In this document: piece by piece, positions 48,649 through 49,329 of the stretch
Layout of the letters: each line of letters starts with the position of its first letter
Numbering within the stretch: the first letter of the stretch is position 1
DNA from: an uncultured Enterobacteriaceae bacterium
GTDB lineage: Bacteria; Myxococcota_A; UBA9042
DNA length: 64,000 nucleotides
Assembly (NCBI GenBank): GCA_964438735.1
Contig: CAYTLW010000004.1
Location: 51,953 to 115,952 of the forward strand
Direction of reading: 5' to 3'
Program-made: the position numbers and the translations under genes
Notes under the pieces: model-generated
The model's input: the letters and a program-made list of their open reading frames with translations, nothing else
Told to the model about the DNA's origin: nothing
The model's database searches: none

Positions 48649-49329
48649 ATGCCGGCTACCCTCGGCCGGCACCTGCAGGGCGCCTGCCAGCTTCTGCTGT
48701 CCGAGTTGTGCGCAATGCAAGACAATCGACCATCGCCACACAACCTGCAGGTCGCGCAGGATCGCCTGGCGCAGCGGCGCGAGCATTCGGGTCTGTGGGC
48801 GCAAGTGCCAGACAGACTCCTCGAGCGCATGATACGGGCGCAGACGGTCCAGTTGATCGCGGCGTCGGTGTTCACATCGGTGCTGCTCGCCGGCGCTCTG
48901 AGCTACTTGTTCGAGTTCCTGGTCTGGGGCGAGGCTCGACACGAAGTGACCGCCCTCGTCTGCGCTGTCGCGCTCTTCGTCTCGGGCTTCGTCGCGTCCT
49001 TGATTATCATCTTCATCCAGAAGATGCGGCGCGATGAACGATCAGCGAAGGAAGCGGAGATGCGCCTGAACGACGAGCTGCGGCAAGCGCTCGCGACGAT
49101 TCGCACGCTTCGCGGCATCATCCCAATCTGCGCCTGGTGCAAGTCGGTGCGCGATGACGAAGGGTATTGGAAGCGCGTCGATACCTATATCTCCGAAAAC
49201 TCGGCGGCGAGCTTCAGTCACGGGATGTGTCCGTGCTGCGAGGAGAAGATGGCGGCCGGTGTCGACGCGATTGCAGCGTCGCCGCCGAGCGAAGACAGCC
49301 CCCTGGGCCGACGGGTCGGCAACGAATAG
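48649..49329 (+). CDS. Small membrane protein with C-terminal Cys-rich zinc-ribbon-like module (putative signalling/sensor protein)
   Basis: SD GGAGG 5 nt before the ATG at 48649. Two TM helices, a coiled-coil (KMRRDERSAKEAEMRLNDELRQALATIRTL), then GIIPICAWCKSVRDDEGYWKRVDTYISENSAASFSHGMCPCCEEK. Confidence 0.65.
   Translation: MPATLGRHLQGACQLLLSELCAMQDNRPSPHNLQVAQDRLAQRREHSGLWAQVPDRLLERMIRAQTVQLIAASVFTSVLLAGALSYLFEFLVWGEARHEVTALVCAVALFVSGFVASLIIIFIQKMRRDERSAKEAEMRLNDELRQALATIRTLRGIIPICAWCKSVRDDEGYWKRVDTYISENSAASFSHGMCPCCEEKMAAGVDAIAASPPSEDSPLGRRVGNE

Follow-up and report, generated by a model that had tools for sequence, protein, structure and literature searches.

An open reading frame for a membrane-anchored protein with four conserved cysteines

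We analyzed a gene in a 64,000-nucleotide (nt) stretch of DNA from an uncultured bacterium (GenBank contig CAYTLW010000004.1; GTDB lineage Myxococcota_A, UBA9042). We refer to this whole stretch as the window. According to the list of open reading frames (ORFs) and the translation of the window, the ORF at 48649-49329 on the forward strand encodes 226 amino acids (aa) plus a stop codon. The protein has a transmembrane (TM) hairpin and, near its C-terminus, a small module with four cysteines, which is our main subject. The features of the gene are as follows. (AF2 is AlphaFold2.)

48639-48643 (+): Shine-Dalgarno-like GGAGG, separated from the ATG by 5 nt, as seen in the sequence itself
48649-49329 (+): the whole gene, for a membrane-anchored protein with a Cys4 module (ORF list and translation; when the gene's own genome is searched in six frames, a profile built from homologues matches the module at E = 2e-34)
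48649-48846 (+): predicted N-terminal cytoplasmic segment, aa 1-66, an orphan sequence with no Pfam match and no clear homologues
48847-49017 (+): TM hairpin, with TM1 at about aa 67-93, an outer loop at 94-99, and TM2 at about aa 100-123 (hydrophobic stretches and Kyte-Doolittle scan)
49018-49116 (+): predicted signaling helix, aa 124-156 (AF2 helix at positions 2-24 of a 77-aa model)
49117-49248 (+): Cys4(+His) putative metal-binding module, aa 157-200 (alignments A1, A5, and A3; AF2 model)
49249-49326 (+): unconserved C-terminal tail, aa 201-226, which cannot be aligned with homologues

This ORF is a real gene, and it encodes a member of a very large and strictly conserved family of unnamed modules. 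The identical start is used by a 99%-identical metagenomic protein, P0002. (P0002 is a fragment that breaks off ahead of the module, and it is the only whole-protein orthologue that our searches gave.) ORFs that overlap it in other frames are artefacts, as is usual where the G+C content is 65-70%. We found no sigma-70-like promoter and no intrinsic terminator in 48300-49500.

The hydrophobic stretches that can be read from the sequence are aa 67-93 and 100-123, with a connecting loop of just 6 aa. A Kyte-Doolittle scan places the two TM segments at about aa 66-84 (score 1.86) and about 103-121 (score 2.80). Because TM2 is directly followed by the strongly basic KMRRDER, the positive-inside rule predicts that both termini are cytoplasmic. 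The initial annotation of this gene had proposed a cytoplasmic N-terminus, a TM hairpin, a coiled coil, and a cysteine module, with the module as the only domain besides the hairpin. The sequence, the Kyte-Doolittle scan, the AF2 models, and scans with Pfam and NCBIfam all agree with this layout. On the input side, the protein resembles the intramembrane-sensing kinases of the LiaS/BceS type, which have two TM helices, a loop of under 10 residues, and no extracytoplasmic domain. In those proteins the hairpin is followed by HisKA and HATPase, but here the Cys4 module stands in their place. Indeed, the 226-aa protein has none of the HisKA, HATPase, or REC domains of two-component systems (a Pfam scan gave weak TM-type noise only). 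REC is carried by other members of the module family.

The N-terminal half seems to be peculiar to this lineage. In the Pfam scan, aa 1-66 had no match. When we sought homologues of the first 130 aa in 40 related genomes, there was just one marginal match (E = 0.007), so the sensor half of the protein is lineage-specific. It also aligns poorly to other small proteins with TM segments and the module.

A large family with a rigid cysteine pattern and no name

The putative ligands are Cys161, Cys164, Cys194, and Cys197. These four cysteines and Trp174 are invariant in alignments of 61, 96, and 147 homologues, where conservation was measured on homologous modules and not on whole-protein orthologues. 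Across 303 distinct modules, Lys165 and His191 are about 95-96% conserved, and Leu154, Gly156, Pro159, Arg168, Asp170, Gly172, Glu178, and Tyr180 are nearly invariant. In every one of 261 distinct modules (this protein's included), exactly 29 residues separate the two CxxC pairs, with zero indels. In the 226-aa protein, the C-x2-C-x29-C-x2-C pattern is formed by the four putative ligands. The lead-in and core of the family (L-x-G-h-h-P-h-C, K, R-D-D, G-Y-W, E-x-Y, H-G-h-C-P) are also recognizable in it: Leu154, Gly156, Pro159, Lys165, Arg168, Asp170, Gly172, Trp174, Tyr180, His191, and Pro195 are all present. The module has the C-terminal location that is typical of the family, at aa 157-200 of 226, after a helix that continues from TM2.

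To gauge the size of the family, we searched 1.84 billion representative proteins with the profile. Clustered at 50% identity, the matches form 25,578 clusters at E <= 0.001 and 20,510 clusters at E <= 1e-10. Among proteins of similar length, a word-indexed search gave 114 homologues, whose likeness lies wholly within the last ~75 residues. From a scan of species genomes we kept 80 loci among the matches listed. These come from the Desulfobacterota, Nitrospirota, Nitrospinota, Gemmatimonadota, Verrucomicrobiota, Acidobacteriota, Bacteroidota, Ignavibacteriota, Chloroflexota, Bdellovibrionota, Myxococcota, Spirochaetota, Elusimicrobiota, Lentisphaerota, and Gammaproteobacteria, among others. 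The initial annotation had named delta-proteobacteria and spirochaetes as carriers of the module; it does occur there, but its actual range takes in many phyla. Among relatives the module is patchy (10 of 41 genomes). A genome may encode several paralogues with differing sensor domains: there are two in the window's genome and up to six in relatives. We also saw small matches that appear to be stand-alone modules, but their contexts resemble truncated or split genes.

The family has no assigned function in Pfam, NCBIfam, the names given by the source databases, or the literature that we covered, as the initial annotation had supposed. Scans of the 226-aa protein with Pfam-A and NCBIfam gave only sub-threshold TM and coiled-coil noise, with nothing on the module, so it does not map to a characterized domain of those collections. 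Nor did the scans place anything on the module in 115 family members that were scanned singly. The source-supplied names of family members describe their N-terminal domains only. In the ESM Atlas, the matches are to unnamed clusters only (0.96-0.93), with none among the named clusters. We found no description of the module in full-text literature (this leaves most subscription journals uncovered, so an earlier account is possible). In particular, it is not described in a study of the signaling helix (S-helix; PMC1592074) or in a census of archaeal two-component systems (PMC5847659).

Predicted fold of the module

AF2 models of the module are confident, with a pLDDT of 85.0 if the helix is included (77 aa) and 94.5 for the module alone (52 aa). 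In these models, a helix that ends in L-x-G is followed by the extended h-h-P-h, the first CxxC knuckle, and a short beta-hairpin (R-D-D-x-G-Y-W). Then come a helix (E-x-Y...), a loop that ends in F-S/T-H-G, and a C-P-x-C knuckle that opens the last helix. A zinc ribbon would have both ligand pairs on the knuckles of beta-hairpins. In the model, the first CxxC precedes the beta-hairpin and the CPxC opens a helix. Because the second ligand pair is at the N-terminus of a helix, the modeled module looks more like a treble clef than like a classical zinc ribbon. The initial annotation had described four to five cysteines arranged like a zinc ribbon. Four cysteines, which it had asked to be conserved, did turn out to be invariant, and a near-invariant histidine can be added to them. 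But the fifth (Cys196) is unconserved and is peculiar to the 226-aa protein, as the family usually has Glu or Asp at this position. The zinc ribbon is not established either, given the treble-clef-like model.

Among PDB sequences, the family profile had no match better than E = 0.077. (Its best-ranked matches are at chance level: a membrane protein, a glutamate dehydrogenase, and the Rad50 hook.) Comparing the 77-aa model to the PDB with Foldseek and VIA-align gave no usable match; the best Z was 3.1 and was driven by the helix. With the 52-aa model, there was no match with Z >= 2 and none with E <= 0.001. The lack of a fold match proves little for a 52-aa domain and does not imply that the fold is novel.

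The module closes sensors and response regulators

Across family members, the end of the module lies a median of 15 aa from the C-terminus. We examined the domains upstream of the module in the 115 representatives. The most common Pfam domains are PAS (~70), GAF (14), REC (12), and HAMP (4), and CHASE, MASE6, and DUF4118 occur once each. The 25 Pfam families listed for these representatives include no kinase, cyclase, or helix-turn-helix (HTH) family. Matches of near or greater length add CHASE3, dCache, MASE1, MASE3, TPR, and solute-binding domains upstream, likewise without a kinase, cyclase, or HTH domain. Reg_prop/Y_Y_Y and the haem-type DUF3365 also appear upstream in samples, in which PAS accounts for about 60%. 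Phosphodiesterase domains are likewise not in the upstream-domain lists of the sampled members. About 40% of the members have predicted TM segments. These lists fit the proposal in the initial annotation that sensor-type proteins end in the module where a kinase or GGDEF output would otherwise be. Judging from domain order, the module occupies the output slot of bacterial sensors and response regulators, with no other output domain in nearly all of the members examined, and we infer that it has an output role.

The REC-module proteins are informative about this slot. In three independent contexts, the gene for a REC-module protein lies directly downstream of hybrid kinase genes (with HATPase, REC, and Hpt; one has HisKA as well) or of a gene for a long multi-PAS REC protein. 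A REC-module gene that follows a hybrid kinase gene is in the place of the terminal response regulator. Examples of this gene order, with a REC-module regulator after an Hpt-bearing hybrid kinase, are at 1565-2167 and 2193-4139 of locus L011 and around 2965-6594 of loci L007-L010. In another lineage, the operon with the REC-module gene opens with a single REC gene and a gene for a CheX/CheC-like phosphatase.

There are exceptions to the usual architecture. Two proteins in relatives (at L015 and L024, on contigs C90 and C251 of genome G013) are full hybrid kinases with the order HATPase-REC-PAS-PAS-module. Also, the top-scoring representatives (P0129-P0170) have two modules each, for example as REC-module-REC-module, module-MASE6-module, or REC-module-module. 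The module can be internal, then, where whole sensor-module units have been duplicated in tandem. Finally, when we clustered the gene neighborhoods of the 80 loci from many phyla, we found no recurrent partner apart from other signaling proteins.

A predicted coiled-coil linker with a fixed register

The predicted helix at aa 124-156 has a hydrophobic 3-4 periodicity that is conserved across the family, and its last ~15 residues (consensus L-x2-A-L-x2-I/V-K/R-T-L-x-G) belong to the module and are conserved with it. In the 303 distinct modules, the conserved hydrophobic positions are at -7, -10, -13/-14, -17, and -20/-21 from the first cysteine, which is an a/d pattern.

The linker lengths are also constrained. 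From the "DIT" motif of PAS to the first cysteine of the module, the distance is 35 aa in 90 proteins, 28 aa in two, and 42 aa in one, with no other values among the PAS-type proteins. From the conserved lysine of REC to the first cysteine, it is 48 aa in 15 proteins, 34 aa in two, 41 aa in two, and 55 aa in one. In both cases the lengths differ only by multiples of seven. Such steps of seven mark a rigid coiled coil that keeps its register, a behavior known from signaling helices (PMC1592074).

In these respects, the module resembles the HisKA/DHp and GGDEF outputs that follow S-helices (PMC1592074). It is in the same place, C-terminal to PAS, GAF, REC, HAMP, and membrane sensors. It likewise sits on a coiled coil, predicted to be parallel, whose length changes in steps of seven. 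And its paralogues are likewise scattered in the genome without fixed neighbors. In contrast to HisKA/DHp and GGDEF, the module is only ~45 residues, has no catalytic fold, and appears to rely on putative metal-binding cysteines. It has no known product or target, and we found no relation to these domains in sequence or fold.

A possible dimer with shared metal sites

We modeled a homodimer of the 77-aa fragment, using an alignment that we built ourselves and two zinc ions, along with three controls. The homodimer scored 0.42, while the best of the three controls scored 0.00. In a calibration that is only rough for this model, as it uses our own alignment and includes zinc, our mark for a dimer was reached by 20 of 30 solved pairs of one chain and by 1 of 23 solved single chains. 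The dimer runs share at least 85% of their contacts, and the pLDDT of the partner is at least 77. The contacts with the lowest predicted error are between Cys194/Cys197 of one chain and Cys161/Cys164 of the other, and the stretch I-I-P-I is paired with S-F-S of the opposite chain. Because these cysteine-cysteine contacts are between chains, the model suggests two metal sites that are built across the subunit interface.

The Rad50 zinc hook offers a parallel, in that a coiled coil ends in a CxxC and zinc is held between two chains (for the module, this is so in the model only). But each chain of the hook contributes a single CxxC, which sits at the apex of an antiparallel coiled coil, and the module has two knuckles per chain after what is predicted to be a parallel helix. 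Matches of our profile to the hook region of Rad50 are weak and not significant (E = 3.7-6.1).

The predicted interface of the homodimer lies almost wholly inside the module. This raises the question of whether the module is just a constitutive dimerization cap, with signaling through other surfaces such as PAS or REC contacts, as in short PAS/LOV proteins and single-domain response regulators. The very small size of the module and the lack of a conserved genomic partner across the 80 loci would also fit. Furthermore, structural Cys4 zinc sites lock the dimerization domains of Fur/PerR-type regulators. Still, we consider a plain dimerization cap to be quite unlikely. It would have no need for the near-invariant surface residues Lys165, Arg168, Asp170, Glu178, Tyr180, and His191, or for a linker whose register is fixed in steps of seven. 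And, leaving aside the orphan N-terminal 66 aa, the 226-aa protein has no other folded cytoplasmic domain that could serve as an output.

Comparison to known cysteine-containing domains

The spacing in the module, C-x2-C-x29-C-P-x-C, is exactly that of seven rubredoxins (PF00301) from related genomes, and both have a small core that is rich in aromatic residues. Unlike rubredoxin, the module is always fused after a coiled coil, and the model of the module has two helices, which rubredoxin lacks. We rejected homology to rubredoxin at the level of profiles: there was no hmmscan match at E <= 1 and none in the six-frame search of the genome. Also, hhalign gave a probability of 7% over nine columns, covering the CPxC knuckle only.

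Another explanation is that the module is an input. It could be a thiol redox or metal sensor (a zinc-thiolate switch or a rubredoxin-like Fe(Cys)4 site) in which oxidation or loss of the metal alters the dimer and modulates the attached domains or hetero-oligomers. The four invariant cysteines and the near-invariant histidine are consistent with this, as is the spacing shared with rubredoxins. If the metal sites lie between subunits, as modeled, then the dimer would depend on metal. Many of the carriers are anaerobic or microaerophilic (Desulfobacterota, Syntrophales, Nitrospirota, and Anaerolineae), and an accessory sensor role would fit the fusions to hybrid kinases. On the other hand, most members of the family have no other output domain, so a pure input would control nothing, and the REC-module proteins already take phosphorylation as their input. 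The rubredoxin hidden Markov model (HMM) has no match in the window's genome, and the low profile-profile probability over nine columns also speaks against a rubredoxin-like site. Overall, we think that an input role is unlikely.

The same spacing, CxxC-x29-CxxC, is found in the tetracysteine zinc domain of EpsE-type ATPases of type II secretion and type IV pili (PMC5061722). In one REC-module lineage, the next gene encodes an MshEN-T2SSE ATPase (pilus or secretion type). The tetracysteine motif of EpsE is an insert in the ATPase domain, whereas the module is terminal on a coiled coil, and the adjacency of the genes is limited to this one lineage. Homology to the tetracysteine domain of GspE/EpsE was likewise rejected at the level of profiles (hhalign probability of 2.1% against the MshEN-T2SSE protein).

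We also considered three other families. CZB (PF13682) is an accessory domain that binds zinc and is found C-terminally in bacterial signaling proteins; it is a four-helix bundle with a 3His/1Cys site and acts as a sensor that controls an adjacent output. The Pfam scan of the 226-aa protein gave no match to CZB. The ZAS (zf-HC2) motif of anti-sigma factors is H-x3-C-x2-C, located in a helical anti-sigma domain at the N-terminus. The module has H-x2-C-x2-C instead, at the C-terminus and in a predicted beta-hairpin and helix, and there was no Pfam match at E <= 1, so we set this candidate aside. The finger of DksA/TraR (PF01258) was rejected as well, with no match at E <= 1 and none in the 115 family members.

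How the module might act

Our favored reading, which we hold tentatively and at somewhat under an even chance, is that the module is a dimeric output cap, stapled by metal and coupled through the coiled coil, and that it relays signals by binding a shared partner. The protein would be a parallel dimer, in which a hairpin with almost no outer loop leads into one continuous coiled-coil helix and then into the 44-aa module. The two modules would form a compact cap with two Cys4 metal sites, each made up of one chain's CxxC and the other chain's CPxC. (The invariant Cys4 pattern suggests that metal is bound; the metal is probably zinc.) A signal that is perceived in or at the membrane, or via an accessory protein, would change the register or rotation of the coiled coil. 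This change would alter the cap, which would then bind or release a shared cellular partner. In this scheme, the cap would act neither by catalysis nor by binding DNA.

Several observations favor partner binding over other kinds of output. First, the small size of the module (~45 residues) rules out most catalysis. Second, several paralogues with different sensors and no recurrent neighbor resemble families whose members feed a common target. Third, the core of the module is slightly acidic (mean net charge of -1.1, with 5th and 95th percentiles of -4 and +1) and the proteins are often membrane-anchored, which argue against DNA binding.

The third point bears on whether the module is a nucleic-acid-binding zinc finger, which would make these proteins one-component regulators of transcription or RNA. 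Cys4 fingers often bind DNA or RNA, and there is a conserved K-K-x-R after the first knuckle of the module. Similarly, output domains with CxxC motifs in archaeal response regulators (HalOD2) have been proposed to bind DNA or RNA (PMC5847659). But we consider this very unlikely, given the acidic core and the membrane anchoring of ~40% of the members, the 226-aa protein among them. We also found no fold match to DNA-binding fingers, which is weak evidence for so small a domain.

Several points weigh against the output cap. In the hybrid-kinase fusions (L015 and L024), the module coexists with a kinase, so there it may be an accessory domain and not the output. The fixed 35-aa linker after PAS could in part reflect the inheritance of PAS, linker, and module as one unit, and the series of REC linkers has just 20 sequences. 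The dimer score barely reaches the mark, and AF2 models of the monomer are also confident, which leaves room for metal sites within one chain. The lack of conserved neighbors gives no positive support to partner binding, and the partner is hypothetical. For the 226-aa protein itself, the apparent lack of homologues for the N-terminal half also counts against the output cap.

Repeats and neighboring genes

The initial annotation had noted that the gene is bracketed by a 33-bp repeat, and we found copies on both sides:

48459-48585 (+): tandem array of the 33-bp direct repeat, 3.8 copies, intergenic between the radical-SAM gene and the module gene (Tandem Repeats Finder score of 217, 94% matches)
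49328-49371 (+): a half copy and one full copy of the 33-bp unit, which begin within the stop codon (49346-49371 matches the pattern exactly)

The repeat pattern is matched four times, where chance predicts 0.00 matches. The last copy upstream of the gene and the copy downstream of it end alike, with ...CCCTACAAAT, whereas the inner copies read ...CCCTACAAAAC. The gene is thus flanked by the two most similar copies. We found the unit nowhere else, neither in the rest of the window's genome nor among 185,579 species genomes. It matches no Rfam family and shows no RNA structure (z = +0.75). The repeats might act as operator-like iterons, or recombination might use them as a substrate.

The locus has matches in five DNA runs from marine or seawater metagenomes, from two studies, and no RNA run is among the runs listed for it. 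(Three of the runs may be the assembly's own source.) In public marine metagenome runs, a 33-nt unitig has ~3.2x the depth of its flanks, which implies that the array is not an artefact of assembly. Contigs from the public runs end at the repeat, which is the expected behavior of 31-mer graphs. The same metagenomes include another contig (record 6 of X2 and record 15 of X5) with a related but different repeat, ...AACGCCTGGCACCCAACAAG..., so similar repeat units may be present in another locus or organism of the community. The G+C content is 0.56-0.65 over 48300-49350 and 0.66-0.71 on either side. Together with the orphan N-terminus, this hints that the gene for the 226-aa protein was recently formed or acquired.

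Upstream on the reverse strand, at 46937-48406, is a gene for a 489-aa radical-SAM protein with an N-terminal extension of ~140 aa and a cysteine-rich C-terminal region. Its best similarities in NCBIfam are weak (HxsC4, TrsS, Tes, and MoaA), and many relatives have proteins at 55-58% identity. The initial annotation had suggested a link between this gene and the module gene, and the 226-aa protein might be its cysteine-rich peptide substrate or its regulator. The two genes are adjacent and divergent, they share a 242-bp intergenic region that holds the repeat array, and the C-terminal region of the radical-SAM protein is itself rich in cysteine. However, orthologues with 55-58% identity are present in at least 10 related genomes in which the module was not found, and their flanks have nothing in common with the locus in the window. 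(Synteny around the radical-SAM and amidohydrolase genes that flank the locus is not conserved in relatives.) We thus attach no meaning to the adjacency. Also, the module is fused to sensors in thousands of unrelated contexts, and a radical-SAM neighbor is not recurrent. We consider a tie to the radical-SAM protein to be highly improbable.

The other module gene in this genome is in a different setting. It encodes a 277-aa PAS-module protein (L006 1486-2319 (-), contig C86 of genome G000). It is preceded, with a 4-nt overlap, by a gene for a DUF7793/SpoIIAA-like (STAS-type) protein (L006 2316-2798 (-)). This single instance hints at a partner-switching context for the PAS-module gene.

Other genes in the window include a hybrid histidine kinase with a multi-TM N-terminus (HisKA-HATPase-REC-Hpt, 42636-44684 (-)), which lies 4 kb upstream of the module gene. 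Two overlapping genes at 45607-46119 and 45950-46888 (+) encode membrane proteins with a bacterial PH domain (bPH_2, YdbS/YdbT-like). Downstream, two genes at 51381-52691 and 52857-54854 (+) encode large, cysteine-rich repeat proteins that are probably secreted; the product of the second has MopE-type metal-binding motifs and Dicty_CTDC repeats. A paralogue of these repeat proteins adjoins the second module gene on contig C86 (L006 1-1404).

Implications

For the window alone, the significance is modest: this is one lineage-specific membrane sensor. For the family, our results point to a widespread signaling output. Censuses of signaling proteins leave many sensors and response regulators with no recognized output, and the module is a concrete answer for ~25,000 clusters. 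A broader idea is that many sensors in each cell (PAS, GAF, REC, HAMP, and membrane types) converge through the module on one hub, or that the metal site is a switch, which would make this an unrecognized and widespread route of output. We find this broader idea somewhat doubtful. If it is true, then the Cys4 route would stand beside the kinase, cyclic-nucleotide, methyl-accepting, and DNA-binding outputs.

The module is small (~60 aa with its helix), confidently predicted, and strictly conserved, so it is open to studies of metal content, structure, and interactions. Identifying its partner or its chemistry would give a function to thousands of proteins that are annotated as "PAS domain S-box protein", "response regulator", or "hypothetical", and the study of the module could reveal a new readout of coiled-coil signals.

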